In this document: positions 3,263 through 49,948 of the stretch, one piece after another
Numbering within the stretch: the first letter of the stretch is position 1
Layout of the letters: each line of letters begins with the position of its first letter
NCBI GenBank assembly: GCA_001780275.1
Contig: MFGB01000020.1
Span: forward strand, 40,813-104,812
Direction of reading: 5' to 3'
DNA: 64,000 nt
Origin: Candidatus Falkowbacteria bacterium RIFOXYA2_FULL_47_19
GTDB taxonomy: Bacteria > Patescibacteriota > Patescibacteriia > Patescibacteriales > UBA12075
Position numbers and translations under genes: made by a program
The notes under the pieces: generated by a model
What the model was told of the DNA's origin: nothing
The model's input: the letters and a program-made list of their open reading frames with translations, nothing else
Database searches by the model: none

Positions 3263-3610
3263 ATGCCGGCTATAACGATAAAACGCGTTTACGAAGAACC
3301 GTCCGAAAAGGACGGTTTGCGGATTTTAGTCGACCGGCTTTGGCCTCGCGGATTGAATAAAGAAAAAGCGACCATTGATCTTTGGCTTAAAGATATCGCC
3401 CCCAGCGAAGATCTGAGAAAATGGTTCGGACACGATCCCGGCAAATGGGCCGAATTCAAAAAAAGATACGGGCAGGAGCTCCGGGGGAATCGATCGGCTT
3501 TAGAGGCGCTGAAGATAATTGTCCGGGAAAATCACCGGGTCTGCCTGCTTTACGCGGCCAAAGACGAAAAGCACAATAACGCTGCCGTTTTATTAAAATA
3601 CTTAAAATAA
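3263..3610 (+). CDS. DUF488 (YeaO-like) family protein
   Basis: MPAITIKRVYEEPSEKDGLRILVDRLWPRGL.KEKA.IDLWLKDIAPS..LRKWFGHDP.KW..F matches the DUF488 pattern. This is the internal ATG of the long track ORF 2939..3610. Confidence 0.8.
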   Translation: MPAITIKRVYEEPSEKDGLRILVDRLWPRGLNKEKATIDLWLKDIAPSEDLRKWFGHDPGKWAEFKKRYGQELRGNRSALEALKIIVRENHRVCLLYAAKDEKHNNAAVLLKYLK

Positions 3611-3699
3611 TAACCCGATAAATTCAAGGAGGAAACCGTCTTTTTTTAAGGGCGGTTTTATTTGCCAATAAGGATGTATGTTGTTAAAATGAAAATAAT

Positions 3700-4434
3700 A
3701 TGGATAAATCGATCATCATCATTCTTATCGCCCTGGCCGGACCCCTCTTGGGCGCCGTACTCGGCATCTGCGGGCGTTACAAGGAAAAGCAGGTATATTA
3801 TCTTCTAAGTTTCGCCGCCGGTGTAATGGCGTTTATTTCGATTTTCGAGCTTTTACCTGAAAGCCTTATTCATGGTTACGTTTTTCACTCTGTCCTGGGC
3901 TTGCTTTCGGGCGGTCTCGTCATGCACGTCTTAAATATCGTTTTACCGCATTTCCATCACCCGGAATGCGGCCAAAACAAGCTTAAACGCGCGACTTTAT
4001 TCGTTTTTTTAGGGATTGCCATCCATAATCTGCCGGAAGGCGCGGCTATCGGCATTGGAGCGTTCGCTGATTTAAAATTTTCCCTGGTTATCGCGCTGGC
4101 TATAGCGCTTCACGATATCCCCGAAGCTATTTGCGTCGCCGCGCCGCTCTATTCCGTTACCGGAAAAAAATGGAAATCTTTTTTTCTGGCGCTCTTGGCG
4201 GCCGTCCCCACGATTCTGGGATTTTTATTGACTTATTATTTCCTGGGAGATATCTCTTTAAAGACTTTAAGCCTCGTCATAAGTTTTACAGCCGGCGTTA
4301 TGCTCTATATTTCTTTCTTCGAAATAATTCCCGTCGTACTTGAAGGCCGCCTGGGAAAAAAATATGCCGGCGCCTGCTTTATGGCCGGTGTTTTACTGGT
4401 CTTCATTTTAGAGAAGATACTCGACTTGAATTAA
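3700..4434 (+). CDS. zupT: ZIP-family divalent metal (zinc) transporter
   Basis: Contains HNLPEGAAIG and HDIPEA metal-site motifs in a polytopic membrane protein. Overall layout resembles ZupT. Confidence 0.8.
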   Translation: MDKSIIIILIALAGPLLGAVLGICGRYKEKQVYYLLSFAAGVMAFISIFELLPESLIHGYVFHSVLGLLSGGLVMHVLNIVLPHFHHPECGQNKLKRATLFVFLGIAIHNLPEGAAIGIGAFADLKFSLVIALAIALHDIPEAICVAAPLYSVTGKKWKSFFLALLAAVPTILGFLLTYYFLGDISLKTLSLVISFTAGVMLYISFFEIIPVVLEGRLGKKYAGACFMAGVLLVFILEKILDLN

Positions 4435-5778: not shown

Positions 5779-5954
5779 AGCGGGAATCCAGCCTGCCTGC
5801 CGGCAGGCAGGGGGTAGGCGGGATTAGCCATGCATTACGTATGTAATTGTCGGTACGGATTAATCCTGGATCCCCGATATCCGCCCCGGGCGGATTCGGG
5901 GATGACAAATTAACGTTTTGGAGAAGAGGACGAAGTCGGTGTGTAGCTTAACAT
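5779..5954 (+). repeat. Hairpin-rich intergenic repeat, copy A (second copy at 51092-51302)
   Basis: Contains tcccgcg-aaa-gcggga, the palindrome cctgcctgccggcaggcagg, and a roughly 15-bp hairpin atccccgatatccgcc/ggcggattcggggat, ending in gtcggtgtgtagcttaa. It aligns with copy B with loop differences and a G-U-compatible change. Confidence 0.7.
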
Positions 5955-5962
5955 ATAATTCT

Positions 5963-6059
5963 GCCCGGATGGTGAAATGGTAGACACGAGAGACTTAACC
6001 ATGCACCACGAAGGGTGCATGGTTACCCGGAACCCGACGTGGTTCCGGGTAAAATCTCC
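5963..6059 (+). pseudogene. tRNA-Leu(TAA) 5' half with a 54-nt double-hairpin insertion in the anticodon loop (no variable arm, T arm or 3' acceptor)
   Basis: 5959-5998 is identical to 6328-6367. After cttaa come two perfect hairpins (5999-6022 and 6023-6052). The anticodon-arm 3' side then resumes as aatctcc. Confidence 0.6.
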
Positions 6060-6073
6060 ACTCGATATGTTTT

Positions 6074-6325
6074 ATGTATTTCGTTTATATATTATTAATG
6101 AATAATAAAAAGCTGTACACGGGCTATACATCAAACATAAAAAGAAGGCTGAATGAACACAAACGAGGAGCGAATGAAACAACTAAAAAATATTTACCAA
6201 TAAAACTGATATTCTGTGAAATATTTTTAAACAAAAAAGACGCCGAGAGAAGGGAAAAGTATTTTAAAACGAGTAAGGGAAAAAGCACTATAAAATTAAT
6301 GTTACGGGAATATTTTCAAAAATAA
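6074..6325 (+). CDS. Small GIY-YIG nuclease-superfamily protein
   Basis: Motifs are FVYIL...LYTGYTSN..RRL.EH, and the protein is only 83 aa (catalytic domain only). It sits between the tRNA-Leu half-copy and the intact tRNA-Leu. Confidence 0.8.
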   Translation: MYFVYILLMNNKKLYTGYTSNIKRRLNEHKRGANETTKKYLPIKLIFCEIFLNKKDAERREKYFKTSKGKSTIKLMLREYFQK

Positions 6326-6331
6326 TTTTCT

Positions 6332-6414
6332 GCCCGGATGGTGAAATGGTAGACACGAGAGACTTAAAATCTCTTGGCCGCAAGGCCATGCCGGTTCAAG
6401 TCCGGCTCCGGGCA
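6332..6414 (+). tRNA. tRNA-Leu (anticodon TAA), class II long variable arm, CCA not encoded
   Basis: Acceptor gcccgga/tccgggc, anticodon arm agaga-cttaaaa-tctct, variable arm tggccgcaaggccat, T arm gccgg-ttcaagt-ccggc. Confidence 0.9.
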
Positions 6415-21678: not shown

Positions 21679-22012
21679 TAAAAAACACAAAACGGTTTCC
21701 CAAAAACCGTTTTTTTTATTCCCCCTTGAATTAAAAAACCGATCAAGCGTTTGATCGGACGGCGGGAGTCAAATGCTCGTCTCTATCCATAAATAGGAAT
21801 AGAAGACAGACAATCTTCTTCGGGTTGTATTTGTGAATCTAGTTGGTCAACCATAACACGTTATATATTTATTAAGATTACAACAATATCTTTACTTGTT
21901 GATTTCTCTGTGGTAAATTAATAATGCCTTAAAAATAGTAAAATATGGATTTACCAAAAATTCCAACAGACAATTTATACAAATTTTAGCATTATCTGGT
22001 TTAATTTTTATA

Positions 22013-22375
22013 TTGCTTACTTTCTTGCTCGGCGGATATTACAATTATTATATAACTAAAGAGGTTCTCCTCGTTAAAGAAGAGACTACACGCGCGCTGG
22101 AAATGAATAGTGATAGCAATCATTCAAGTACAACCCCCCGTTTATACATAAGCAAAGAAATTGCGGATAAAATAACCGATCTTCAAAATAGAACTATCGC
22201 CTTAAAAGCCAGCATAGATACCATATTATTACTTAAGCCATTCATTTTTGGCGCGATGATTGTTAGTACGGTTATGGCATTTTTAGGTTTTTATTTATGG
22301 TATATAAAATTACAAAAACATAAAGACGAGATTATAAAATTAGAAGCGGAAAAATTAAGGTCTAAAATACAATAG
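22013..22375 (+). CDS. Hypothetical small membrane protein (start uncertain, possible frameshift with the ATG at 21945)
   Basis: The TTG start falls inside a predicted TM helix. An ATG at 21945 with 14 codons lies in another frame just upstream. Very AT-rich. Confidence 0.35.
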   Translation: MLTFLLGGYYNYYITKEVLLVKEETTRALEMNSDSNHSSTTPRLYISKEIADKITDLQNRTIALKASIDTILLLKPFIFGAMIVSTVMAFLGFYLWYIKLQKHKDEIIKLEAEKLRSKIQ

Positions 22376-22376
22376 T

Positions 22377-23171
22377 ATGTTAGAAGAATTTCAAAAATCA
22401 ATTAAGGCTGTCTTGTATGACAGACTGTCAAGCCCATTAGCAGGAGCTTTTATATTATCATGGTTCGTTTGGAACTGGGGATTGATTTATTACATCTTGA
22501 CCGGAGATGAAACGAGATACACAATTGAAAGAATTGAATACATAAAAGAAAATTTTTTATCCGAAAAATATATTTTGTTTTTCCCCTTGCTTTCTGTTAT
22601 TTTTTTAGTCTTCCTTTACCCATTTGCGGCAAATTTAGTATATAGGGTAATGTTAATGTTTAATAAACAGAAAAGAGACATCAAAATTAAAATTGAAAAT
22701 GATCAATGCCTTACTTTTAGGGAATCGGTTGAAATAAAAGAAACTTTCAGAAAACAGGAAGAGGTTTTTAAAAAATTCAACCAAGACAAAGACGAAAAAA
22801 TAAACATACTAAAAAGGGAAAATGATCTATTAAAAAATAAAATCAAAAAAATAGAGAATGACAATAAAAGAAAAGAATTATCTCCAGAGGAAAAAGCAAA
22901 AATTGACAAAATTTTAATTCATAACCTCGGAACCAAAGACGATGAATTTAAAAAAATAATAGAATCTAAATATAATAGACATTTTCTATCAATGGTAAAA
23001 TATATTAATCAGGGCTGGGGGTTTGGCGAAGATATAGACAATAACGCAGTAGGATTTTTTATTGCAAACGATATTATTGAGCAAACAAATAGGGCAAGTA
23101 TTTATAAATTAACCACCCGGGGTAAAGAATATTTAAAATATTATTACGATAATATTGAAACAAAAAACTAA
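22377..23171 (+). CDS. Hypothetical membrane protein with a central coiled coil
   Basis: TM segments at the N-terminus and a KE-rich heptad-like region (KINILKRENDLLKNKIKKIENDNKRKE). Abuts the upstream ORF with a 1-nt gap. Confidence 0.55.
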   Translation: MLEEFQKSIKAVLYDRLSSPLAGAFILSWFVWNWGLIYYILTGDETRYTIERIEYIKENFLSEKYILFFPLLSVIFLVFLYPFAANLVYRVMLMFNKQKRDIKIKIENDQCLTFRESVEIKETFRKQEEVFKKFNQDKDEKINILKRENDLLKNKIKKIENDNKRKELSPEEKAKIDKILIHNLGTKDDEFKKIIESKYNRHFLSMVKYINQGWGFGEDIDNNAVGFFIANDIIEQTNRASIYKLTTRGKEYLKYYYDNIETKN

Positions 23172-23205
23172 AAAACACCCCACCATAACCCGGCGGGGTG
23201 TTTTA
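23171..23205 (+). repeat. CACCCC-type palindromic element
   Basis: aaaaaacaccccaccataacccggcggggtgtttt immediately after the stop of 22377..23171. Confidence 0.6.
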
Positions 23206-23214
23206 TTACTATGG

Positions 23215-23940
23215 CTAATTAATTATGCAAAAATTTTTATACTTTAAAAACAATGCGCTAAGGTTGTTATATATTTTTTCTGAATTTTCTAAAATTTCCT
23301 TATTTCTATTTACAATCATTTGCGAAATCCAAGCCTTATTATTATCTGGTGTCATATTAAAAGATAAATCTAGTTGTTGTACAATATTTATCGCATTATT
23401 TACGGAATCCATAGACTCCATTACGTTGACAACCTCAATGGCAGAGGAACCTAAATATAAATATATATTATTTAAATTTTTATAATAAGGGTCAGTTACA
23501 TAGCCGGTCATTATAAATCTATTTTTTTCAAATCCGGTTAAAGTTTGCACAGTATTGGTTGCCTTTTTCAGATTAATAAAATTGGAATAAGTTAAAACGC
23601 AGTAAAAACTATTCTTTGCGTCCAGTTCATTTTTTTGTATTTCTATATAATGATTATTAATGTTCTGTATTTCAATAGAGTTTTGAAAAATAAAAAATAT
23701 TAATCCGAGAATGATTGTAATAACGGCAAGAAATTCACCCGATTTAATTTTATTTATTTTTATTTTATTTCTAAATAATAAGAATATACATATTACCGGC
23801 AACAAAAAATAGTAATTAGAAAGAATTACCGCTTTATATAAATTTTTAAATTTTAAAATTACATACAGTGCAATCAATACAAAAAGAATATTGAAAAAAA
23901 TATTCAATATTTTATGTAAAAGATTTTTTTTATTATTCAT
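23215..23940 (-). CDS. Hypothetical membrane protein
   Basis: 241-aa AT-rich ORF with 3-4 N-terminal TM segments. Confidence 0.5.
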   Translation of the reverse strand: MNNKKNLLHKILNIFFNILFVLIALYVILKFKNLYKAVILSNYYFLLPVICIFLLFRNKIKINKIKSGEFLAVITIILGLIFFIFQNSIEIQNINNHYIEIQKNELDAKNSFYCVLTYSNFINLKKATNTVQTLTGFEKNRFIMTGYVTDPYYKNLNNIYLYLGSSAIEVVNVMESMDSVNNAINIVQQLDLSFNMTPDNNKAWISQMIVNRNKEILENSEKIYNNLSALFLKYKNFCIIN

Positions 23941-24004
23941 AACGCTGTAGTTAGATACGTTTATATATTACCATTCGTTTTTTTAATTTACAAACTTTTT
24001 AATC

Positions 24005-38470: not shown

Positions 38471-39001
38471 CTAGGGCTCTAATATTTCTATCTTGACGTG
38501 CTTTACGCCAAATTTTTTCGCGTCGGTCTTGTCGGCCATCCAAATATCCACCCGATCATCATAACGTTCGTTCATGCGATCCCTGACCGTAAAGACACGA
38601 TCTCCGAATAAATCCGGAATTCGCACCTGCGTACCGAATTTTAGCCAATTAGCGGCAATCGTGTCTTCGATTCCATGTTCACAAACATTAAAACCGTTTG
38701 CCGTCACGCAAGGAGAATCGTCACATTGGTTTTTTTCGGAATTATAGGCGGTAACCGTGCGGTAAGTTATTTTTAATGCTTTCCGGTTTTCGTTTAGAGG
38801 TAAATTATTTATAAATTCTTTGACTATTACCGGCTCTTCAACCACCGGTTCGATCATTTCCTCGTCAATACTGTTTATTTCGATAGCTAAAACAGGGGCA
38901 GGAAAAAGGAAAAAATCAAAAACTATGATAATAATTAATGAAAAAATTATCTTTTTGGCTAGTTTTAAAGAAATATTTTTTTCTTTTAATAACGTTTTCA
39001 T
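38471..39001 (-). CDS. Secreted/anchored 3D-domain (MltA/RlpA-like) cell-wall-acting protein
   Basis: N-terminal TM. The C-terminal TVTAYNSEKNQCDDSPCVTANG...GTQVRIPDLFGDRVFTVRDRM...VDIWM is typical of 3D domains. Confidence 0.72.
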   Translation of the reverse strand: MKTLLKEKNISLKLAKKIIFSLIIIIVFDFFLFPAPVLAIEINSIDEEMIEPVVEEPVIVKEFINNLPLNENRKALKITYRTVTAYNSEKNQCDDSPCVTANGFNVCEHGIEDTIAANWLKFGTQVRIPDLFGDRVFTVRDRMNERYDDRVDIWMADKTDAKKFGVKHVKIEILEP

Positions 39002-39765: not shown

Positions 39766-39775
39766 ATCCAAAAAA

Positions 39776-39802
39776 AAGCATCCGATCTTTAACGGATGCT
39801 TT
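39776..39802. terminator. Bidirectional terminator
   Basis: aaagcatccg-atctttaa-cggatgcttt between convergent genes. Confidence 0.6.
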
Positions 39803-39820
39803 CTTAATATCAAATTTAAA

Positions 39821-40246
39821 CTAACCTCCGAAGGCGCTAGGATTTCCACTCATCGCGGCATCCAGGGCAGTAAAGACAAAATAGGTGATCGAATAAGCGG
39901 CCACGATTATGATCAAGCCTATTACAGCGCGCTTGATCGTGTCTTTGGCTTTTTCGACTTTCTGTTCTTCGCCGGCGGCCGTCATCCAGTTATAGCCGCC
40001 GTATATTATAAGCACGATAAATATAATGCCCAAAAGGCTTAAAAAACCTGTTAATATCGTGGCGACAATACTCCCCGGATTCTGGCCGGAAGCGAAACCG
40101 GCCGCCGTACCCAGGCTATCGCCGGCGCCTATTATCCTGTCCGCGGCATCTCCCGTAAGCAGCGCGGCCTTAACGCCGAAAAACGGAATTAAAAGGAGAG
40201 CGACCGATCCATATCCGAATATTTTTTTTATGATCTTTATTATCAT
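39821..40246 (-). CDS. VirB2/TrbC-like pilin paralog (array member 1 by coordinate, last in transcription order)
   Basis: Start taken at MIIKIIKK, whose ATGA overlaps the upstream stop. Signal/TM, TM1 LSLLGIIFIVLIIYGG, loop YNWMTAAGEEQKVEKAKD, TM2 AVIGLIIIVAAYSITYFV. Confidence 0.75.
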   Translation of the reverse strand: MIIKIIKKIFGYGSVALLLIPFFGVKAALLTGDAADRIIGAGDSLGTAAGFASGQNPGSIVATILTGFLSLLGIIFIVLIIYGGYNWMTAAGEEQKVEKAKDTIKRAVIGLIIIVAAYSITYFVFTALDAAMSGNPSAFGG

Positions 40247-40644
40247 ATTTCTAAAATGATAGCGTTGGAAATGAATTGCCAGATAGCGAACGATCCGACC
40301 ACTATTATAAGACCGATAAGAGCCCGGCTTATCGTGTCTTTCGCTTTCGAAACCTTTTGTTCGTCGCCGGCGGCCGTCATCCAATTATAACCGCCGAATA
40401 ATATCAATACGATGAATATTACTCCCAATAGGCTTAAAAAGGCCTTAATTATGACGCCCACCACGGTTATGAAGGTGTTATTATATTCCCCGTCTTCATA
40501 AGGGGCGTAACCGGCGCCTTCGGTACCTACTTTTTCCAGATTATCCAGCGGCGTAGCGGCAAAAACAAAATAGGGGACGATCAATACTGCCAATAAGAAA
40601 AAAAGTAAAATCAAATGCCGATATTCTTTTATTTTATTCATCAT
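40243..40644 (-). CDS. VirB2/TrbC-like pilin paralog (member 2)
   Basis: Signal peptide ...VFAA, then LSLLGVIFIVLILFGGYNWMTAAGDEQKVSKAKDTISRALIGLIIVV. Confidence 0.78.
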   Translation of the reverse strand: MMNKIKEYRHLILLFFLLAVLIVPYFVFAATPLDNLEKVGTEGAGYAPYEDGEYNNTFITVVGVIIKAFLSLLGVIFIVLILFGGYNWMTAAGDEQKVSKAKDTISRALIGLIIVVGSFAIWQFISNAIILEI

Positions 40645-40673
40645 ATGGTCAAAGTTTAAATATTATTCGGACA

Positions 40674-41078
40674 TCATACTTCCTGCATGGTTTCCGCGCC
40701 GATCTGGCTTAACACGAAATAACTGATAGCGTAAGCGGCTAAGACTATGATCAAACCGATGACAGCGGCCGTGATCAGATTCTTGGCTTTCTCTACCTGC
40801 TGATCGTTGCCCCGGGCGAGCATCCACGTATATCCGGCATAGATCATCAATATTAGAAACACAACACCCACGAAAGATAAGGCGGCCTGGATAACTTTTC
40901 CTATAAGAACGGCCGGATCCGCGTCGCTTCTGTAGCCGGCGCCCGTTGATCCGGCCACGTCGTTTAGGGGCTGCTTGAAGGCATCGCCCAAATTAGCGGC
41001 TTCGGCGGACGGAATAAAAACCGCCAGCAATATTACCGCGGCAATCAAATATTTATTGATCTTCAAAAGTTTAAGCAT
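40674..41078 (-). CDS. VirB2/TrbC-like pilin paralog (member 3)
   Basis: Signal peptide ...SAEAA, then LSFVGVVFLILMIYAGYTWMLARGNDQQVEKAKNLITAAVIGLIIVL. Confidence 0.78.
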   Translation of the reverse strand: MLKLLKINKYLIAAVILLAVFIPSAEAANLGDAFKQPLNDVAGSTGAGYRSDADPAVLIGKVIQAALSFVGVVFLILMIYAGYTWMLARGNDQQVEKAKNLITAAVIGLIIVLAAYAISYFVLSQIGAETMQEV

Positions 41079-41122
41079 ACGTTTTTCGTTCGCTTATAAT
41101 ATATCAGGTTTTTTAAAAATCA

Positions 41123-41527
41123 CTAGCCGACCGCGGTGCTTCCGGCTAATTGCCCGCCGATAAAAACGGTTATGGCATAAGCGAGCATTATTATTATAAG
41201 TCCGATCGTGGCGTTAACGATCGTGCCCTTGGCTTTTTCCGCGACCTGCTCGTTGCCCCGGGCCATCATCCAGGAGTAACCGGCGTAGATCATTATAATA
41301 AGGAAAACCACCCCCAGAAAAGACAAGAGGACCTTGATTATCATCCCGAGCATCTGCGCCGGGGATCTTTGGGTCAGACTGATGGAAGCGTGGCCGGTAG
41401 CCTGTCCGGTTTCTTTAATGCCGCTCTCATCTATAAAACTATAAGCTGAACAATCGTTAACCGCCGGAATCGCTGACAGCAGCCACAAGAAAAAAAATAT
41501 AGAAAAAAATATTTGGCCGTATTTCAT
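41123..41527 (-). CDS. VirB2/TrbC-like pilin paralog (member 4)
   Basis: LSFLGVVFLIIMIYAGYSWMMARGNEQVAEKAKGTIVNATIGLIIIM. Confidence 0.78.
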   Translation of the reverse strand: MKYGQIFFSIFFFLWLLSAIPAVNDCSAYSFIDESGIKETGQATGHASISLTQRSPAQMLGMIIKVLLSFLGVVFLIIMIYAGYSWMMARGNEQVAEKAKGTIVNATIGLIIIMLAYAITVFIGGQLAGSTAVG

Positions 41528-41561
41528 AATAAACTGCCGCCGGACAAGATCCGGATCGTTT

Positions 41562-41948
41562 TTAAGTCGGGGAGGTTAGCGCCCGGCCTATAAATGCGGT
41601 AAGCGCGTAAGCCGCCAAAACTATTATAAGACCGATGGCCGCCTGCTCGATCAGACTCTTCGCTTTTGCGACCTCCTGCTCGTTGCCCCGGGCCATCATC
41701 CAGGTAAAGCCGCCATAGATCACCAAAAGAAAAAAGATAATACCGGTAAAAGCAAGTATCGAACCGACGATCTTGCCTATGGTGGCTGGAACCGTGCCGC
41801 GCGGTACTGTGCCGTAGCCTTCTTTGGCGGTGATATTAAGGCCGTCTAAGGCCTCCTTCCCCGCGTCGGCGTAAACCGTCTGGAAAAACGCCAGGAAAAC
41901 CAGGCTAAAGAGCATAAATACGACAAAATGGGATTTAACGGAAAACAT
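41562..41948 (-). CDS. VirB2/TrbC-like pilin paralog (member 5)
   Basis: Signal peptide ...VYADA, then FTGIIFFLLVIYGGFTWMMARGNEQEVAKAKSLIEQAAIGLIIVL. Confidence 0.78.
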   Translation of the reverse strand: MFSVKSHFVVFMLFSLVFLAFFQTVYADAGKEALDGLNITAKEGYGTVPRGTVPATIGKIVGSILAFTGIIFFLLVIYGGFTWMMARGNEQEVAKAKSLIEQAAIGLIIVLAAYALTAFIGRALTSPT

Positions 41949-42082
41949 AAATTATCAATATGGTTAGAACACTGTTACGGGCATGAACGCGAATCTGCTT
42001 CACGCCCATAACAGTGGAACCCGATTAGAAAAACCGGGTTTCCACAATTATAAAAAAACGTAAAAGATCTTTGTTAAGACGA

Positions 42083-42484
42083 TTAACCCGTGGCGTTCGT
42101 AGCGTTATACAAAGCGTTGATCACGAACTGGGCGATGGCGAAGGCCGCTAAAATTACGACCAGGCCGATAATGCCGGCGGCGATCAGCTTTTTAGCCTCG
42201 TCAACCTTGCCTTCGTCTCCGGCGGCCGTCATCCATTTAAATCCGCCGAAAAGGATCAACAATACGGCGATAATACCTAAAAATCCCAAAAATATGTTAA
42301 TTACCGAACCGGCCATTTCCCTGGGGTCGGTATTGCCCAAACCGGTCGCTGTCTGAACGTTAGATTCAAAACCGCCCCAAAGCATGTTGTCGGCGGCTGA
42401 TTGCGCGTGAGCGGTCAGACCGAAAGCGAAAACCGGTAAAATAACCAGAATTGAAAGCGCTAAAACAAAAAATGTTTTTTTCAT
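42083..42484 (-). CDS. VirB2/TrbC-like pilin paralog (member 6, near-identical subgroup)
   Basis: Start taken at MKKTFFVLALS, preceded by ttgggggtgaat. Contains LTAHAQ, GGFKWMTAAGDEGKVDEAKKLI and the tail ALYNATNATG. Confidence 0.82.
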   Translation of the reverse strand: MKKTFFVLALSILVILPVFAFGLTAHAQSAADNMLWGGFESNVQTATGLGNTDPREMAGSVINIFLGFLGIIAVLLILFGGFKWMTAAGDEGKVDEAKKLIAAGIIGLVVILAAFAIAQFVINALYNATNATG

Positions 42485-42632
42485 ATTCACCCCCAATCTA
42501 TTAATTAACAATTAATATAAACCGTGTCTTTCCGATTAACGGTCTTCCTGCGGCCATAAACGCGAATTGTCGTGTTCATGGCGGCGGAGTCCGCTTTAAA
42601 GCGGACGCCCGCTGATCGAATAGTTTGAATAT

Positions 42633-43034
42633 TTAACCGGTGGCGTTCGTGGCGTTGTACAAAGCGCTGATCACGAACTGGGCGATAGCGAAGGCCGCCA
42701 AGATAACGACCAAGCCGATAATACCGGCGCCGATCAATTTCTTAGCTTCATCAACCTTGCCCTCGTCTCCGGCTGCGGTCATCCACTTGAATCCGCCTAA
42801 AAGTATGATCACGACCGCGATAATACCAAGGAATCCCAATAATATATTGACCACCTGGCCCGCCATTTCTCGTGGGTCGGTGTTCCCCAAACCGGTAGCG
42901 GTCTGTACGTTGCCCTCAAACCCGCCCCAAAGCATATTGTCGGCGGCTGTTTGCGCGTGAGCGGTCAGACCAAAAGCGAAAACCGGCAAAATCACCAAAA
43001 CGGATAAAGCTAAAACGAAAAAAGTTTTTTTCAT
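42633..43034 (-). CDS. VirB2/TrbC-like pilin paralog (member 7, near-identical subgroup)
   Basis: Differs from member 6 at 11 of 133 residues by manual alignment. Has the same SD and the same tail ALYNATNATG. Confidence 0.82.
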   Translation of the reverse strand: MKKTFFVLALSVLVILPVFAFGLTAHAQTAADNMLWGGFEGNVQTATGLGNTDPREMAGQVVNILLGFLGIIAVVIILLGGFKWMTAAGDEGKVDEAKKLIGAGIIGLVVILAAFAIAQFVISALYNATNATG

Positions 43035-43231
43035 ATTTCACCCCCAATCTATTGAATAATAAAAAAATAAAATCGATACTAACTTTAATCTTAAACAAGA
43101 AACTGCAAATCCCTTTTTCGCTCCCGCCGCCATAAACGCGAAGCGCCTTTCGTGTTTATGGCGGCGGAGTCCGCTTTTTAAGTCGGACATCCGCGGATTT
43201 ATCAAAGACAGTAGCAGGTAATTATATAATA

Positions 43232-43633
43232 CTAACCGGTAGCGCCAGTGGCTCCGTATAAGGCGTTGATAACGAACTGGGCGACTCCGAAAGCGGCTAA
43301 GATCACGACTAAGCCGATAACTCCGGCGCCGATCAATTTCTTAGCTTCATCGACTTTCGCCTCGTCTCCGGCGGCCGTCATCCATTTGAATCCGCCCAAC
43401 AATATGATCACTACGGCTATTATGCCTAAAAATCCTAACATGATATTAACGACTTGCGCGGCCATCTGCCGGGGGTCGGTGTTTCCTAATCCGGTCGCCG
43501 CCTGGACGTTGGTTTCATAATTGCCCCAAAGCATGTTATCGGCGTCAGACTGGGCGTGAGCGGTCAAGCAAAAAGAAAAGATCGGTAATACCATTAAAGT
43601 AAAAATCGCTAAAACGAACATTATTTTTTTCAT
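43232..43633 (-). CDS. VirB2/TrbC-like pilin paralog (member 8, near-identical subgroup)
   Basis: Contains LTAHAQ, GGFKWMTAAGDEAKVDEAKKLI and the tail ALYGATGATG. Confidence 0.82.
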   Translation of the reverse strand: MKKIMFVLAIFTLMVLPIFSFCLTAHAQSDADNMLWGNYETNVQAATGLGNTDPRQMAAQVVNIMLGFLGIIAVVIILLGGFKWMTAAGDEAKVDEAKKLIGAGVIGLVVILAAFGVAQFVINALYGATGATG

Positions 43634-43723
43634 ATTTCACCCCCTTTCTACGGACTTGGGAAAAATATCCGATTTAGCTGCTTTTTTCCGTTTTTCCCTT
43701 GTCAAATATATATGACTTTATAA

Positions 43724-44125
43724 TTACCCGATAGCTCCGGTAGCTCCGTATAGAGCGTTCAGGATAAATTGAGCCAGGGCGAAAGCGGCCAATAATATTA
43801 TCAAACCGATCACCCCGGAGCCGATGAGCTTTTTGGCTTCCTCGACTTTCTCTTCGTTGCCGGCGGCCGTCATCCATTTGAATCCGCCCAATAAAATAAT
43901 AATAACGGCGATAATGCCGATAAAACCCAACATGATATTGACTACCCGGGCCGCCATCTCCCGCGGATCGGTATTGCCCAAACCGGTAGTGGCCTGAACA
44001 TTACCTTCTAATCCGCCCCACAGCATAACGTCAGCCTCGGATTGAGCGTGGGCGGTTAAAGCAAAGGAAAAAACCGGCAACAAAACCAATATCATCGGAA
44101 TTATGACAAATAATATTTTTTTCAT
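43724..44125 (-). CDS. VirB2/TrbC-like pilin paralog (member 9, first in transcription order)
   Basis: Contains LTAHAQ, GGFKWMTAAGNEEKVEEAKKLI and the tail ALYGATGAIG. SD aaagggggtggg upstream. Confidence 0.82.
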   Translation of the reverse strand: MKKILFVIIPMILVLLPVFSFALTAHAQSEADVMLWGGLEGNVQATTGLGNTDPREMAARVVNIMLGFIGIIAVIIILLGGFKWMTAAGNEEKVEEAKKLIGSGVIGLIILLAAFALAQFILNALYGATGAIG

Positions 44126-44292
44126 ATATTTCCCACCCCCTTTCCTTTTAAAAATATATTATAAACCTTAACTTTATTTTAACATATTTTGTCATGCTTT
44201 TGCAACTTATTATTTAATAATAAAACAAATAAGGAAAATTTTTTTAATTTATGCTAAAATTGTAAATATAAACAGGCTATAACAATTTTTTA

Positions 44293-45912
44293 ATGCTTAC
44301 CATAAAAAAACTAAATTATCCCTCCCTGCTTTGGTTTTTATTTTATCTGGTTATTTTTTCCTATTTAATATTTAATTCCTATAATTACCTGGATGCTGAT
44401 CTGGGCTGGCACCTGGACGTAGGAAAGCGCATATTAGAAGAAAGATCCGTTCCTGTTGAGGAACATTATGACTATACTCTTATAAACAGGACGTGGGTGG
44501 ATCATGAATGGCTGCTTAACGTCGCAACCTATTGGCTATATGATAATTATGGTTATTTTAGCGTAAGTATATTTTTTGCCCTGATCGTGATTTTAGCCCT
44601 GATAGTCCTTAACATATATACCAGAAAATATTTTATCCGCGGCCCCGGCGGTCAGATTTTAATAGGAACCATACAATTTTTCGGCGTTTTAGCGATGGCG
44701 CCGCACCTGGGGGTCAGGATGCAGACCGCAACTTTGCTTAATTTATCGCTATTGCTTTTTATAATCCGGACCTATGAAATAACTAAAAACACCAGGGTTC
44801 TTTTCTGGTTATGGCCGCTTTTCTGTTTTTGGGCGAACTCCCACGCCGGATTTTTAATCGGTGTTTTTATGTTATTCCTGTGGATAGGGATTAAATCGCT
44901 GGAAATTGTTCTTAAAAAATTCCGGGTTTTTGCCCGGATTGACTTCATGAACGAGCGGAAAAGCGGGGAATTAGTTAAATTCCTGCTTTTTGCCCTGGGA
45001 GCGGTCGGGGCCACCCTCATAAATCCGTATGGATTAAAACTATATTCCTTCCTTCTGGATTATTCCAATAATTACTACCTGCAGGTGATCGCGGAATGGC
45101 TGCCCTCGTACTCCATGCCGATCCAGTATAAACAATTAATTTACGCGGCCCTGGTCGTGGCCATGTTAACGGTATTTACGGCCGATCTGGCGCGGAGCTG
45201 CAGAAAAAAAGAAAATTCAACCGTGGATGGCTGGCACCTGGGCATGATCCTCGTCCTTTTGTTCATGGCCGCGCAATCAAAGCGCCATTTTCCGTTGTTT
45301 TTCGTAGTTTCCTTTCCCTGGCTTATCTTTTCCCTGGTCCGCGACCTGCGTCTGCCGGCGCGCTTCGCGAAATATATTTCGGAAAATACGGTCCTGAAAA
45401 TATTCGTTCTGCCGATTTTTCTTCTGGCCGCCGCTAATTTCCTGGTCAGGGCGCAGTATGCGCCTGATCCATTTTTCTCCCCTTATTTCTGCGGCTATTA
45501 TCCTTGCGGGGCGGTGCAATACATGAAAAACAATCCCGATCTTTTGGACAGGAAGATCTTAAACGATTACGGCTGGGGCGGGTACATGATCTGGACCTGG
45601 CCCGGAAAAAAACTTTTCATTGACGGACGATTGCCCTTCTACGAGTTCAACGGGCATAGCCTCCTTGAAGAATACACGGATTTCTTTGTCGCGGGACAGG
45701 CAAAGAATAAACTTGATAAACACGGCATCGGCCTGGTATTGCTCAAACTCTACCCCAAGGTTTCCCTGAACTGGTTCGAAAGAAAATTCCTGGGATTGGA
45801 CGATAACGAGATCAATAACCAAAAAAGATATCTGCGCGATTACCTTAGGGGCGCGGCCGGCTGGGAATTAGTTTATGGCGATAAGGTCAGCGAAGTATAC
45901 GCCGAAAAATAA
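44293..45912 (+). CDS. Polytopic membrane protein, GT-C-fold-like putative lipid-linked-sugar glycosyltransferase
   Basis: About 12 or more TM segments. An acidic first-loop motif YLDADLGWHL follows TM1. The soluble C-terminal domain contains DYGWGGYMIW. The family assignment is inferential. Confidence 0.45.
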   Translation: MLTIKKLNYPSLLWFLFYLVIFSYLIFNSYNYLDADLGWHLDVGKRILEERSVPVEEHYDYTLINRTWVDHEWLLNVATYWLYDNYGYFSVSIFFALIVILALIVLNIYTRKYFIRGPGGQILIGTIQFFGVLAMAPHLGVRMQTATLLNLSLLLFIIRTYEITKNTRVLFWLWPLFCFWANSHAGFLIGVFMLFLWIGIKSLEIVLKKFRVFARIDFMNERKSGELVKFLLFALGAVGATLINPYGLKLYSFLLDYSNNYYLQVIAEWLPSYSMPIQYKQLIYAALVVAMLTVFTADLARSCRKKENSTVDGWHLGMILVLLFMAAQSKRHFPLFFVVSFPWLIFSLVRDLRLPARFAKYISENTVLKIFVLPIFLLAAANFLVRAQYAPDPFFSPYFCGYYPCGAVQYMKNNPDLLDRKILNDYGWGGYMIWTWPGKKLFIDGRLPFYEFNGHSLLEEYTDFFVAGQAKNKLDKHGIGLVLLKLYPKVSLNWFERKFLGLDDNEINNQKRYLRDYLRGAAGWELVYGDKVSEVYAEK

Positions 45913-45927
45913 ATATTTATTATTTTT

Positions 45928-46653
45928 ATGAATATATCAGATTATAATTCGCTAAAAAATTCCGACGAGCAGCATTTTTGGTATAAAGCCAGAAAGGTCC
46001 TGATCGATCGTCTTTTAGGGCTTTACCTCAAAGAGGACGACGGGCGGGAAATACTGAATATCGGGGCGGGACTTGGCACTGAAGCCGAAATTTTAAAAAA
46101 ATACGGACGGGTGACCGCCTTGGACAAAGACCCGGAAACGGTCGCTCTTTCGGACCGATCGGGAATAAGAACCGTGCTCGGCGACATAGAAGAGGTTGAA
46201 CCGGAAAAAAATAAATATGATTGCGTCTGCTGTTTTGATATTCTTGAACATTTGCGCGATGACCGCGCCGCCCTGAAAAAGATATATCGCGCCTTGCCGC
46301 CCGGCGGCTATTTGTTCTTTACCGCTCCGGCTTACGGCTTTTTATGGAGCGGACACGACCTTGTTACCGGACACAAAAGAAGATACACCCAAGGCGGGGT
46401 AAAAAAATTGCTCAACGAGGCCGGTTTTGAAATTCCGCTGATAGGTTATTGGAACTCCCTGCTTTTGTTGCCGGTAATGATCTACCGGCTGGCGAAAAGG
46501 GCCGCCGGCCTCGCTCCGAAAACCGACGCCCGCCCCCTGCCCCGGATCCTTAACCGCTTACTGTTCCTTGTCCTTAATTTAGAAAATAATTTTATCGGCC
46601 AAAGCATCCCTTTCGGGTTAAGTATTTACGGGACGGCCAGAAAAAAGATATGA
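45928..46653 (+). CDS. Class I SAM-dependent methyltransferase
   Basis: Motif I ILNIGAGLGTE, acidic post-I residue (TALDKD), and motif CCFDILEHL. Confidence 0.82.
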   Translation: MNISDYNSLKNSDEQHFWYKARKVLIDRLLGLYLKEDDGREILNIGAGLGTEAEILKKYGRVTALDKDPETVALSDRSGIRTVLGDIEEVEPEKNKYDCVCCFDILEHLRDDRAALKKIYRALPPGGYLFFTAPAYGFLWSGHDLVTGHKRRYTQGGVKKLLNEAGFEIPLIGYWNSLLLLPVMIYRLAKRAAGLAPKTDARPLPRILNRLLFLVLNLENNFIGQSIPFGLSIYGTARKKI

Positions 46654-47411
46654 ATATCGAATTCCATATTCCGGTATATAATGAAGAAAGGATCCTGGAA
46701 AAAAATATTACCTTCCTCCATGATTATTGCCGGAAAAATTTCGGTTTCGACTGGTCGATCGCGATCATCGTGAACGGTTCCACCGACCGCTCCCGGGTCA
46801 TAAGCGAACGCCTGGCGGCCCGGTATCCGGAGAAGATCAGGGCGGAATATTATCCGGCGGCCGGCCGGGGCGGAGCGATCAGGAATTCGTGGCTTAAAAG
46901 CCGGGCCGATATAGTTTCTTACATGGATGTCGATCTCGCGGTCGATCTTAAGAATATCAATGATCTGGTGGAACCGATCCTGGTTGACCGGGCCGATCTG
47001 GTCATCGGCTCCCGCCTCCTGTCGAACGCGAGCATTGAAAGATCTTTTATCCGCGAACTCGTTTCCCAGAGCCATCTTATTATCTCTCGGTTGATCCACC
47101 GCCATAATTTTTCCGATCTGCAGTGCGGCTTTAAAGCGGTCAGGCGAACCGCCTTCGCGGCGATCGCTCCTTATGTCGCGAACAAGGGCTGGTGGTTCGA
47201 CACCGAGACCATACTTCTCGCCAAGCTGTTCGACTACCGGATTGCGGAAATTCCGGTTATCTGGTCGGAAAACCGGTATGATAAAAGAAAAAGCAAAGTA
47301 AATCTGACGACCGACAGCTTAAACGCGCTTTTTAATCTCATTAAGCTTAAGTTCCGTCTGACCGGCTTAAAAAACAGCCTTAATATAAACGATAAAAAAA
47401 ATCTTCGCTGA
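46650..47411 (+). CDS. GT2 glycosyltransferase (polyprenyl-phosphate sugar synthase-like)
   Basis: IPVYNEE..., DVD (DxD) in SYMDVDLAVD, and the QCGFK motif. ATGA overlap with the methyltransferase. Confidence 0.82.
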   Translation: MNIEFHIPVYNEERILEKNITFLHDYCRKNFGFDWSIAIIVNGSTDRSRVISERLAARYPEKIRAEYYPAAGRGGAIRNSWLKSRADIVSYMDVDLAVDLKNINDLVEPILVDRADLVIGSRLLSNASIERSFIRELVSQSHLIISRLIHRHNFSDLQCGFKAVRRTAFAAIAPYVANKGWWFDTETILLAKLFDYRIAEIPVIWSENRYDKRKSKVNLTTDSLNALFNLIKLKFRLTGLKNSLNINDKKNLR

Positions 47412-47527: not shown

Positions 47528-49948
47528 TTATTCGTAATCCGGCTCTATATATAAATCATAGACATGAATAGCTCCGTCGCTGTCCGCGTTGATCTCGCCG
47601 GTAATAGCCGTAAAACCGTCGATCGCCACGGCATCTTTTCCGAAATAATTGCTGGCGAAGGATTCATATACGGAAGCGATCTGGCTATAAACGTCGCCGG
47701 TTATCAGAAACGCCCAGAATCTTTTCTGAAGATATGAAGAAACCACGGCCCGGTTGCCGTCCAGAGCCACCCGCTGGCCGAATCCGTCGCCGATATATCC
47801 GTTTTCCGCCGTAATTTCGTTGATCTTGTCCCATTCGCCGGTAGCGGCATCGCGCCTAAAAAGGAGGGCGCGGCCGGCTTTACCGGATTTGGGCGTGGAA
47901 CCGACCAAGGCGTAATTGCCGGAAATTGAAACGCTCTGCCCGACATACACGCAATTCACGTAATCGCCGACAAAATAATCGGTTTCACTCCAGGTTTCCG
48001 TACTCTCGTCATATTCGAAGAAATAAACCGCGCCCTGGTCATAAGCACCGTGTTTATGAGCGCCTACCACGGCGTAATTGCCGTCAATGGCCACGCTCGT
48101 ACCGAAATAGGCATTGGCTTCGCCGTTAGAAGCGGTTACAACCGTGTGTCCGCTATCATGAAAAATATAAGCCGCGCCGGCATTGCTTGCGGCACTGTCA
48201 TTGCGGGGCGCGCCGGCAATCGACATATCTCCGGAAATATCGACGCTCTGTCCCAGGTTTTCCCCGGCGCTGCCGTCCTGTCCCAGGAACTCGTCGCCAA
48301 CCTGGGTGCAGCCGTTGCTGGAACAGGTATAAAAATAAACCGCGCCGACATCGCTGTACGCGCTATGGCCCTGTCCGATAATATCGCCGTCCCTCTGCCA
48401 GGCGCCGACAATGGCGTTGGCACCGTCTATCGCTACGGCGCTGCCGTAATTCTCGTATCCGCCGTAATCCGGGTATGTCGTAATGATATCCTTGACTTCC
48501 ACTTCTTCCCAGCCGTTCGCCCCTTTAGCGAAAACGAAAAGAGCGCCTCGCTGGTTATACACGAACCTGGGATCTCCCACCAGCATAATATCCCCGGAAA
48601 CACCGATCGACCAGCCGAACCAGCTGGCGTCGCTGTCGCTCGGATTCAATTCCGAGTGGCCCGGGGCGCCCAATGTAAATTCATAAGCGGATTCGATATC
48701 GAGATCATAACCGATCATGGTTTTAACGCCGTCTATCTCGAACAACTGCTCCACGGCGGTATGGTTTCCGTCTATCACGGTCTCGTACTCTCTCGTAACC
48801 GGCGGCCCATAAGCGGAGTAGCCGTAATGGCCGTTCCAGAATTCAAGGATATGCTCTTTGACCGCGATCGCTTTTCCGATCGCCCAGTTCAGGACCAACT
48901 GCGACCAATGCTCGTTCTCCTCTGCATCCACCCGCAGAAAATCCTGCACATAAAGTCCGTCATCGTCGCAGGTGGCCGGCGGAGTGGTTGAGCATTGCGG
49001 ATCAGGCCATTCATGTACCCAAACGCCGTGGCCGTCGTTGTCCCAGGGCAAGCCGAAGGTTTCTAAACCGGAGTTACCGTAATATTCCTCGTTGTCGTAT
49101 TCGTCGAGAAAAAGCTGGGAAAGTGGATCTTGGCCGCTTAATTTCCATCCCGGGAAATCCTGGAATATGCCGACGGGATGGACGGTATAGACGCGGTCGA
49201 TGTTAACATGACTGGTAGCCGTATATCCATATAAGGGATAAGTTACCTCTTCGCCGCCAGTTACCGTGTCAAACCAATTCCCATTCGCGTTTCCGTAAGG
49301 ATCGTGCACAATTACGTTTTGTTCTGTGCCGTTTACGCCCGTATCATAACCGATAATCACCAGATAATGACCATACTCTATGCTACTGATCGTAATCTCG
49401 GCATGACCGATCAGGGGCAGTCCAGCGTCAATGTTTTGCTTGATGATGTCAAAACGATCTGAATATATCGCATCACTAACGATAAGGCCGTGATTTTCGA
49501 GATACAACTTCAATTGATTAGGATCTGTGCCCCAATATGGATTCGCCGAGTCTGCTCCGGGGCCAGTAACTATAAATCCATGAGCTCCATAAACTTCGTG
49601 CGGGAAATGAAGATTATATGTATTTGGCGCATCTATTCCGTCCCAATCCCTTGCCCATTCTTCATTATAATCTTCACCGCTTTTGTCGGTCCAGTTGGTA
49701 TAAGGGTTGTATACATACCAACCTGGGTAGCCGGAAGTGTTTTCCGGCTGAAGCTTATGGAACTCCGTAATCATCACGGCCGATGTCGGGCCGCAGGCGT
49801 TATATCCCAGAAAATAATTCTGGTCCATGTGTTCAACTTGGTTGATATATGGGACGTTTTCAACTGTTACGGTGGCCGCGTTGACCTGAGGGATAAAAAC
49901 CAACAAACAGACCGTGACAAGGGCTGATGCCCACGCTATTTTTTTCAT
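47528..49948 (-). CDS. Large secreted protein: N-terminal C39-like (papain-fold) peptidase domain plus C-terminal FG-GAP-like beta-propeller repeats
   Basis: Signal peptide ...PQVNAA. VPYINQ...NACGPTSAVMI and GHYLVIIGYD...VHDP give C39_2-like Cys/His. Repeats include GQSVDISGDMSIAGAP, FGTSVAIDGNYAVVGA, GQSVSISGNYALVGS and FGQRVALDGNRAVVSS. Confidence 0.7.
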   Translation of the reverse strand: MKKIAWASALVTVCLLVFIPQVNAATVTVENVPYINQVEHMDQNYFLGYNACGPTSAVMITEFHKLQPENTSGYPGWYVYNPYTNWTDKSGEDYNEEWARDWDGIDAPNTYNLHFPHEVYGAHGFIVTGPGADSANPYWGTDPNQLKLYLENHGLIVSDAIYSDRFDIIKQNIDAGLPLIGHAEITISSIEYGHYLVIIGYDTGVNGTEQNVIVHDPYGNANGNWFDTVTGGEEVTYPLYGYTATSHVNIDRVYTVHPVGIFQDFPGWKLSGQDPLSQLFLDEYDNEEYYGNSGLETFGLPWDNDGHGVWVHEWPDPQCSTTPPATCDDDGLYVQDFLRVDAEENEHWSQLVLNWAIGKAIAVKEHILEFWNGHYGYSAYGPPVTREYETVIDGNHTAVEQLFEIDGVKTMIGYDLDIESAYEFTLGAPGHSELNPSDSDASWFGWSIGVSGDIMLVGDPRFVYNQRGALFVFAKGANGWEEVEVKDIITTYPDYGGYENYGSAVAIDGANAIVGAWQRDGDIIGQGHSAYSDVGAVYFYTCSSNGCTQVGDEFLGQDGSAGENLGQSVDISGDMSIAGAPRNDSAASNAGAAYIFHDSGHTVVTASNGEANAYFGTSVAIDGNYAVVGAHKHGAYDQGAVYFFEYDESTETWSETDYFVGDYVNCVYVGQSVSISGNYALVGSTPKSGKAGRALLFRRDAATGEWDKINEITAENGYIGDGFGQRVALDGNRAVVSSYLQKRFWAFLITGDVYSQIASVYESFASNYFGKDAVAIDGFTAITGEINADSDGAIHVYDLYIEPDYE

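Follow-up and report, generated by a model that had tools for sequence, protein, structure and literature searches.

A nine-gene VirB2-like (PF18895) pilin array in Candidatus Falkowbacteria: a six-paralogue cassette with an expanded leader gene

What do nine consecutive genes for pilin-like proteins serve when they stand among housekeeping and envelope genes? The question arises from a 64,000-nucleotide stretch of the Candidatus Falkowbacteria genome RIFOXYA2_FULL_47_19 (assembly GCA_001780275.1, contig MFGB01000020.1, positions 40,813 to 104,812). "The window" denotes this whole stretch below, and coordinates are counted from its first letter. At positions 39821-44125, on the minus strand, nine open reading frames (ORFs) of 128-141 amino acids (aa) follow each other head to tail, and the public record calls the identical nine genes. 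The locus is of a known kind, namely the ABY1/Falkowbacteria version of the VirB2-like (PF18895) pilin array of Patescibacteria. The reading favored here, held to be somewhat probable, is that a type IV secretion system (T4SS), encoded at another place in the genome, receives its VirB2-like subunits, one major and five minor, from the array.

The nine genes and the family of their products

The genes are numbered by rising coordinate, member 9 being the first transcribed. Members 9 to 6 are of one type (the "leader" type), each 133 aa long. Member 9 (43724-44125) follows a Shine-Dalgarno (SD) sequence, aagggggtggg. Member 8 (43232-43633) is 76-80% identical to members 6, 7, and 9, and has an orthologue at 99% identity in the corresponding locus (L002) of a sister metagenome-assembled genome (MAG), GCA_043801965.1. 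The protein of member 7 (42633-43034) is identical in that MAG and in GCA_001778165.1 (Candidatus Falkowbacteria RIFOXYB2_FULL_47_14, class ABY1, which has the same nine genes). Member 6 (42083-42484) completes the group. Each of the four is preceded by a GGGGGTG-type SD, and the gaps around them are long (134, 148, 197, and 90 nt). Their mutual identity is 71-92% in protein and 71-82% in DNA. Members 5 (41562-41948, 128 aa), 4 (41123-41527, 134 aa), 3 (40674-41078, 134 aa), 2 (40243-40644, 133 aa), and 1 (39821-40246, 141 aa) are only 25-43% identical and are separated by gaps of -4, 29, 44, and 34 nt. Member 1 starts internally, at the ATG at 40246, and shares 4 nt (ATGA) with the stop of member 2. 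The longest ORF, starting at a TTG at 40384, is an over-extension, and the public gene call agrees with 40246. A family of 143-nt DNA repeats, at 60-77% identity, is common to all nine genes. An earlier description made from the letters alone (the sequence-only reading) had thus correctly seen the nine minus-strand ORFs and their lengths, the tight packing of members 1-5, and the separate SDs and long gaps of members 6-9. It had called the latter group near-identical, which the identities given above do not bear out.

By profile score, the nine proteins are members of the T4SS_pilin family (PF18895) of the Candidate Phyla Radiation (CPR), the assignment that the sequence-only reading had proposed. 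All nine exceed the gathering threshold of 26.6 bits, and therefore the family match is not a chance one; the public gene calls of the locus bear this family too. From member 9 down to member 1 the scores are 40.8, 37.9, 40.6, 41, 31.2, 33.9, 34.3, 32.8, and 46 bits. The best curated match of all nine is NF045849, the "Mbov_0395 family pilin-like conjugal transfer protein" of Mycoplasma integrative and conjugative elements (ICEs), at 30.5-44.4 bits and E-values of 1e-7 to 1e-11. Its cut-off of 40 bits is passed by members 1, 2, and 6 (44.4, 40.8, and 42.9 bits), and the other six score 30.5-39.6 bits, the upper value being that of member 9. This match fits the published derivation of the Patescibacteria T4SS from the MPF-FATA class (PMC12102498).

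All nine proteins contain three hydrophobic segments, at residues ~4-27, 61-81, and 100-125. The AlphaFold2 (AF2) model of member 7 (predicted local distance difference test score, pLDDT, 77) displays helices at residues 2-20, 54-86, and 91-129. The first helix is separated by a poorly ordered segment of 30 residues from the other two, which form a long hairpin. Hydropathy and model thus agree on the trait that characterizes PF18895, a signal or anchor segment at the N-terminus and then a hairpin of two transmembrane (TM) helices. The variable N-terminal segment and the C-terminal tail are predicted to be outside and the conserved loop of the hairpin to be cytoplasmic, because the N-terminus (MKK...) would lie inside, and this holds whether the leader is cleaved or not. 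An extracellular loop, which would have spoken against the pilin interpretation, is therefore not what the topology predicts. The signal-peptide-like segment and two-helix hairpin of the earlier blueprint stand, the cleavage itself being a prediction. Of its loop motif, the residues G, W-M, A, G, and A-K (G..W-M.A.G...A-K) are invariant in the nine-protein alignment, while the first G of the motif is replaced by A in members 3 and 4.

A conserved gene order, an old expansion, and structured spacers

The organization of the array was compared with that of 80 related loci from species-representative genomes. Tandem arrays of 2-15 genes are found in 76 of them, six genes being the most frequent size (45 arrays), followed by seven (12) and nine (4), with one array each of 11, 13, and 15 genes. 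Only nine of these 76 arrays hold a pair of genes at 70% identity or more. Quinonero-Coronel et al. (2025, PMC12102498) counted 441 arrays of 2-11 VirB2-like genes across 383 assemblies of Patescibacteria, so that nine copies in a row, which the sequence-only reading had found unusual, belong to a common type of locus. Many of the surveyed third-party-annotation (TPA) MAG records entitled "uncultured Gammaproteobacteria bacterium" (L016, L018-L020, L022, L023, and ~30 others) carry typical Patescibacteria arrays and synteny, and one array-bearing TPA MAG is entitled "Candidatus Binatia"; such titles look taxonomically wrong.

In the 45 six-gene arrays of other species, each position was matched to the genes of the window. 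Position 1 matches the member 6-8 type in all 45 arrays, and position 2 has member 5 as its best match in 33. Positions 3 and 4 match members 3 or 4, position 5 has member 2 as its best match in 40 arrays, and position 6 has member 1 in 30. From this conserved order it follows that the window array is a six-gene cassette, the leader gene of which has been expanded to four copies (9, 8, 7, and 6). Members 5, 4, 3, 2, and 1 are the five divergent, tightly coupled paralogues downstream of the leader copies; they occupy positions 2, 3 or 4 (members 4 and 3), 5, and 6 of the cassette.

The expansion is old, because synonymous divergence (dS) among members 6-9 ranges from ~0.9 to saturation; even the closest pair, members 6 and 7 with 92% protein identity, has a dS of 0.89. 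The ratio of non-synonymous to synonymous substitution (dN/dS) among the four is 0.05-0.13. Every copy of the array is under purifying selection: the sister genome has a 1:1 orthologue of each of the nine genes, 93-100% identical and with a dN/dS of 0.02-0.08.

These values bear on the proposal, also made by the sequence-only reading, that antigenic or phase variation of a surface pilin draws on the array as a reservoir, in which expressed and silent copies would be swapped by recombination. Tandem paralogues with variable exposed N-terminal segments are what such a reservoir would offer, and the VirB2 paralogues of Bartonella and Anaplasma provide an analogy in the literature (PMC12102498). 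The 1:1 orthologues and the age of the paralogues argue, however, against silent cassettes and gene conversion. The copies are all complete, those of the leader type have clear SDs, and the hallmarks of such systems (silent or partial cassettes, recent recombination, diversifying selection) are absent, dN/dS remaining within 0.02-0.13 and the dS of members 6-9 giving no sign of recent gene conversion. Furthermore, the order of the paralogues is kept across 45 species, and no invertase or recombinase gene occurs among the Pfam-scanned ORFs of the window. A variation reservoir is consequently regarded as highly improbable.

The gaps within the leader group also share a distinctive structure. The spacer after copy 8 (43035-43231, minus strand), which the SD of copy 7 follows, has a minimum free energy (MFE) of -50.7 kcal/mol and a z-score of -4.2 over 43090-43231. 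That after copy 7 (42485-42632, minus strand; MFE -54.1 kcal/mol, z-score -5.7), which the SD of copy 6 follows, has a repeat (D3) in common with the next spacer. After copy 6, the spacer that separates the leader copies from member 5 (41949-42082, minus strand) folds as a double hairpin (MFE -49.7 kcal/mol, z-score -7.3), and is a candidate attenuator or mRNA-stabilizing element. The double hairpin is repeated after copies 8, 7, and 6 and consists of GTCCGC..GCGGAC followed by a ~14-bp stem, CCATAAACACG...CGCGTTTATGG. A comparable design is seen in the 45 related six-gene arrays, where gene 1 is followed by a stably folding gap with a median length of 92 nt and 3-10 nt separate the remaining genes. 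An Rfam scan of the window returned five tRNAs only and no match in the array spacers. Upstream of member 9 lies an AT-rich divergent intergenic region (44126-44292), with four minus-strand promoter-like sites between 44153 and 44293 that are consensus matches only. Directly after member 1, a terminator-like hairpin (39772-39805, minus strand) combines a 13-bp stem with a T run.

A leader gene with its own SD, a structured spacer, and then five translationally coupled genes is the arrangement that would be expected for a major subunit followed by minor ones. In chaperone-usher operons (pap, fim), the gene for the major subunit comes first, and a stable stem-loop precedes the lower-expressed genes for the minor subunits. 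The analogy is one of organization only, and neither the protein families nor the assembly machinery of these operons are related to the array.

Secretion genes and their distance from the array

If the array encodes subunits of a secretion system, where is the rest of that system? No VirB4, VirD4, VirB6, relaxase, or pilus ATPase was found by Pfam among the ~60 ORFs of the 64-kb window, in agreement with what had been noticed from the letters. Pfam content consists of housekeeping and envelope genes only, with matches to IF-2, TruB, NusA, trigger factor, L19, TsaE, LspA, ClpP, and several glycosyltransferases. A T4SS just beyond the window, which would have made this an ordinary T4SS locus, was likewise not encountered: the 10 kb past the 3' (high-coordinate) end (locus L007) contain no T4SS ATPase. 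They contain three solo PF18895 genes (3460-3903, 5919-6377, and 10001-10411 of L007), located ~1.5-8.4 kb past that end. One of the solo pilin genes precedes genes for two proteins of 377 and 226 aa, for which no family match was obtained, and for a PLD-family protein. In all, the same genome holds at least four more solo PF18895 paralogues outside the array. One of them lies between lexA and a response regulator/MacB-type efflux cluster (L009, 10001-10396; L010). L009 and L010 are contigs of a sibling assembly and a sequencing run, and the solo pilin is named A2303_01450 by NCBI in the window genome.

A T4SS elsewhere in the genome is indicated by two sources. The assembly with the same nine genes, GCA_001778165.1, is listed with "Presence of VirB4: Yes" (PMC12102498, Table S1). 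The sister MAG GCA_043801965.1, which has the same nine-gene array in the same context, encodes a T4SS ATPase of the DUF8128/TraD/VirD4/VirB4 superfamily on a contig other than that of the array. Separation of array and ATPase is the rule in this lineage, as a T4SS ATPase occurs within 10 kb in only one of the 80 related loci (L044). There it directly follows a solo pilin gene, and the same MAG, DBS2-4.bin161, keeps its six-gene array on a separate contig (L057). Among published assemblies having both, pilin genes are near virB4 in 1,135 of 1,948 and distant from it in 813 (~40%) (PMC12102498). The suggestion that the array is a stand-alone element outside any T4SS, which the local absence had inspired, is not sustained by these observations.

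The ATPases of ABY1 found in this way are ~840 aa long, combine DUF8128 with TrwB/TraG-D_C, and are 65-78% identical across species (L044, 7638-10666; L096, 9494-12517; L098, 10001-12538). They score slightly higher with type IV coupling protein (TraD/VirD4) than with VirB4 models, and their genes are surrounded by housekeeping genes, no more than one small gene lying upstream. Two other proteins with Walker A motifs that recur upstream of related arrays, of 506 and ~1,090 aa, are ComM/Mg-chelatase-like and SMC proteins, respectively, and were rejected as T4SS ATPases.

Under the favored reading, each pilin-like protein would be exported by Sec and then seated in the membrane with its G-x-W-M...A-K loop inside. 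The leader type, with its own SD, multiple copies, and hairpins after the copies, would be the abundant major subunit, and the five downstream paralogues would be specialized subunits of low stoichiometry. Together, they may assemble into a pilus-like or channel-lining structure, for host contact or uptake, the assembly being performed by the T4SS encoded elsewhere and not by a local machine.

Several points weigh against this reading. Adjacency of array and ATPase is as rare as just described. The T4SS ATPase of the window genome itself was not retrieved, either from a listing of homologues or from a metagenome scan. No A2303_ or RIFOXYB2_FULL_47_14 name occurs among the best 120 homologues of the L044 ATPase, and the scan with the sister ATPase returned nothing above 76% identity. 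Two candidates were discarded, P0174 as its source sample is unrelated, and P0165 as it is just 68% identical to the sister ATPase. The relation to classical VirB2/TrbC pilins is weak, in sequence as in structure. PF04956 (TrbC/VirB2) reaches 17.9-19.7 bits in three of the nine proteins (18.8 bits for TrbC in member 3) against a cut-off of 27.9, and PRK13857, the NCBIfam model of VirB2, reaches 16-22 bits in three (21.9 at most) against a cut-off of 103. Neither the Foldseek search of the member 7 model against the PDB (no match at E <= 0.001) nor a profile built from the pilin alignment and run against PDB sequences gave a significant pilin match. Foldseek ranks the ATP synthase c-subunit first (E 0.76), the Aeropyrum conjugative pilus (8dfu) is at E 5.5, and many unrelated proteins also appear at E > 0.7; a fold as simple as a helical hairpin does not discriminate. 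Because the searches of solved structures gave no significant match, the analogy with VirB2 rests on architecture and on the naming of the profiles. Of the original assignment to VirB2/TrbC pilins, it is thus the architecture that holds, and not the family scores. Furthermore, the major and minor roles, which we infer, have gene organization as their sole basis. To our knowledge, no pilus and no PF18895 protein has been biochemically characterized.

The nine proteins could also be integral-membrane parts of the T4SS channel, forming no extracellular pilus, either VirB3/PrgI-like or as a hetero-oligomer lining the lumen, as in a monoderm MPF-FATA-type machine. The Patescibacteria T4SS is nested in this monoderm class, which is without pili (PMC12102498), the closest curated family comes from the ICEs of wall-less Mycoplasma, and the constancy of the six conserved paralogues suggests a complex of defined stoichiometry. 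A signal peptide that looks cleavable and a variable exposed N-terminal segment are pilin-like features, however, and the four-copy amplification of one paralogue suits a polymerizing major subunit better. The array genes are, in addition, unlinked to channel genes. A purely channel-forming role is therefore considered unlikely, and the supply of major and minor pilin-like subunits to a distant T4SS is retained as the preferred reading.

Conserved neighbors and a possible glycosylation module

Divergent from the array lies a gene (44293-45912, plus strand) for a 539-aa membrane protein that has no Pfam or NCBIfam match. Its AF2 model (pLDDT 90.7; predicted template modeling score 0.90) has the glycosyltransferase C (GT-C) fold. 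In Foldseek searches it matches STT3, PglB, and AglB at E 5e-7 to 4e-3, and also AftA, AftD, and Pmt4, and the C-terminal domain of AglB is matched at E 9e-3. The motif D34-x-D36, after TM1, is invariant. The predicted protein thus combines the features of GT-C enzymes, namely a multi-TM fold, an acidic motif within the first loop on the outside, and a C-terminal domain beyond the cytoplasm. Members of its family (~540 aa) come from sources mostly labelled Patescibacteria and are annotated as hypothetical only. Next are a methyltransferase gene (45928-46653) and, directly downstream of it, a glycosyltransferase family 2 (GT2) gene (46650-47411, plus strand; Pfam Glycos_transf_2) similar to polyprenyl-phosphate sugar synthases. 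The best NCBIfam matches of the GT2 protein are AglJ, ArnC, PpgS, and dolichyl-P hexose transferase, all far under their cut-offs.

On the other side, downstream of the array and on the same strand (38471-39001), a 176-aa protein is encoded that has an N-terminal TM segment and a Cys-containing domain. Its C-terminal domain bears the motif T-A-Y-N-S...C...A-N-G...D-R-M. Neither Pfam nor the PDB gave a significant match, also when a profile of 25 sequences was used. A "3D"/MltA-like cell-wall domain, which would have made it a possible analogue of VirB1, was considered but not confirmed, as PF06725 matches just one of 25 homologues, at E 0.096, and the PDB gives no match.

These neighbors recur among the 80 related loci: a GT-C homologue abuts the array in 45, a GT2 gene is near it in 38, and a homologue of the 176-aa protein lies ~1 kb downstream in 35. 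A link between the array and a glycosylation module that depends on a lipid carrier is plausible, although inherited gene order could account for the adjacency. The conserved neighbors of the array were not found reported; a literature search for oligosaccharyltransferases in Patescibacteria gave only a paper on archaeal bundling pili. A conserved x-A-T motif stands in the C-terminal tails of the leader-type pilins, which are predicted to face outward; in 24 of 65 species (loci L016-L095) the motif is N-A-T. In the window, N-A-T-N-A-T is present in the tails of members 6 and 7 (42083-42120 and 42633-42670). The x-A-T tail is a possible glycosylation site; a strictly N-linked model is not supported, since only the T is conserved in x-A-T and N-glycosylation sequons are not universal in pilin tails. 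It is a tentative and rather doubtful idea that the six paralogues form a heteromeric pilus-like structure whose leader subunit is glycosylated outside the membrane by the GT-C protein with a lipid-linked sugar made by the GT2 enzyme. If it were true, a monoderm would possess a system of glycosylated VirB2-like pilins whose genes are coupled to a glycosylation module and not to the secretion machine.

The same neighbors are an argument for a filament or membrane scaffold at the cell surface that would be independent of any T4SS and may owe its maturation to the neighboring glycosylation module in place of a secretion ATPase. They are conserved next to arrays where the ATPase is not, and solved conjugative pilins gave no significant match in structure or sequence. 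This proposal is, however, at odds with the VirB4-positive report for the genome, with the T4SS ATPase of the sister genome, and with the company that the family keeps elsewhere, as its members adjoin a T4SS ATPase in L044 and belong to the essential T4SS locus in Southlakia and to transfer modules in Mycoplasma ICEs. No alternative assembly ATPase is linked to the array either. T4SS independence thus appears improbable, and the array is better read as a supplier of subunits to a T4SS encoded at another place.

Two other parts of the window deserve mention. An 806-aa protein with a Peptidase_C39-like domain and four FG-GAP repeats is encoded at 47528-49948 (minus strand), and other genes occupy the equivalent position in the sister MAG. 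At 22001-24000, G+C falls sharply to 0.27, versus ~0.45 elsewhere in the window, and the ORFs at 22013-23171 (plus strand) and 23215-23940 (minus strand) belong to no significant Pfam family; this segment may be a horizontally acquired island.

How does the array compare with known systems? With PF18895, the likeness extends to all nine proteins, which score above threshold across the two-helix core; the family name itself is a computational annotation, with no demonstrated pilus for its members. The NF045849 protein of Mycoplasma ICEs shares the same hairpin region and belongs to a monoderm MPF-FATA-type transfer system, but its genes are single-copy and ICE-borne, whereas the nine window genes are chromosomal and multi-copy. 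With VirB2/TrbC (PF04956; the Agrobacterium T-pilin and the F-pilin TraA), the array has in common the leader peptide, the pair of hydrophobic helices, and the short, charged loop on the cytoplasmic side. The window array differs from these by its sub-threshold scores, its monoderm host, and the lack of adjacent VirB5, VirB6, and VirB4 genes.

The closest systems are the published VirB2-like arrays of Patescibacteria, defined as at least two VirB2-like genes, in tandem or one non-pilin gene apart, in a Patescibacteria genome (PMC12102498). The nine contiguous genes of Candidatus Falkowbacteria (class ABY1) fall within this definition. Shared features are the tandem PF18895/VirB2-like genes, the genome-reduced monoderm epibionts that carry them, and a location that is often distant from virB4. 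In the single species tested, the Patescibacteria T4SS and its VirB2-like array are essential. The array in question has six genes and is that of Southlakia epibionticum ML1 (Wang et al. 2023, cited by PMC12102498 and PMC12857230), described as essential in a 2025 review (PMC12857230). No new kind of system is therefore at hand; what the window contributes is a fixed order of six paralogues, an amplifiable leader, a structured spacer, purifying selection, and an oligosaccharyltransferase-like neighbor. This anatomy argues for a surface structure built from a defined set of subunits, which may be glycosylated, and against antigenic variation.

Published arrays are most abundant in Microgenomatia and Saccharimonadia, with a mean within-array identity of 25% and a maximum of 54% (PMC12102498). 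Members 1-5 fit this divergence and members 6-9 do not, so that the window array stands apart by its origin in ABY1 and by a four-copy subgroup at 71-92% identity. Its nearest counterparts are the "Sec-secreted array" of TM7x and the Southlakia array, of which the latter lies within a T4SS locus, whereas the window array lies among housekeeping and glycosylation genes.

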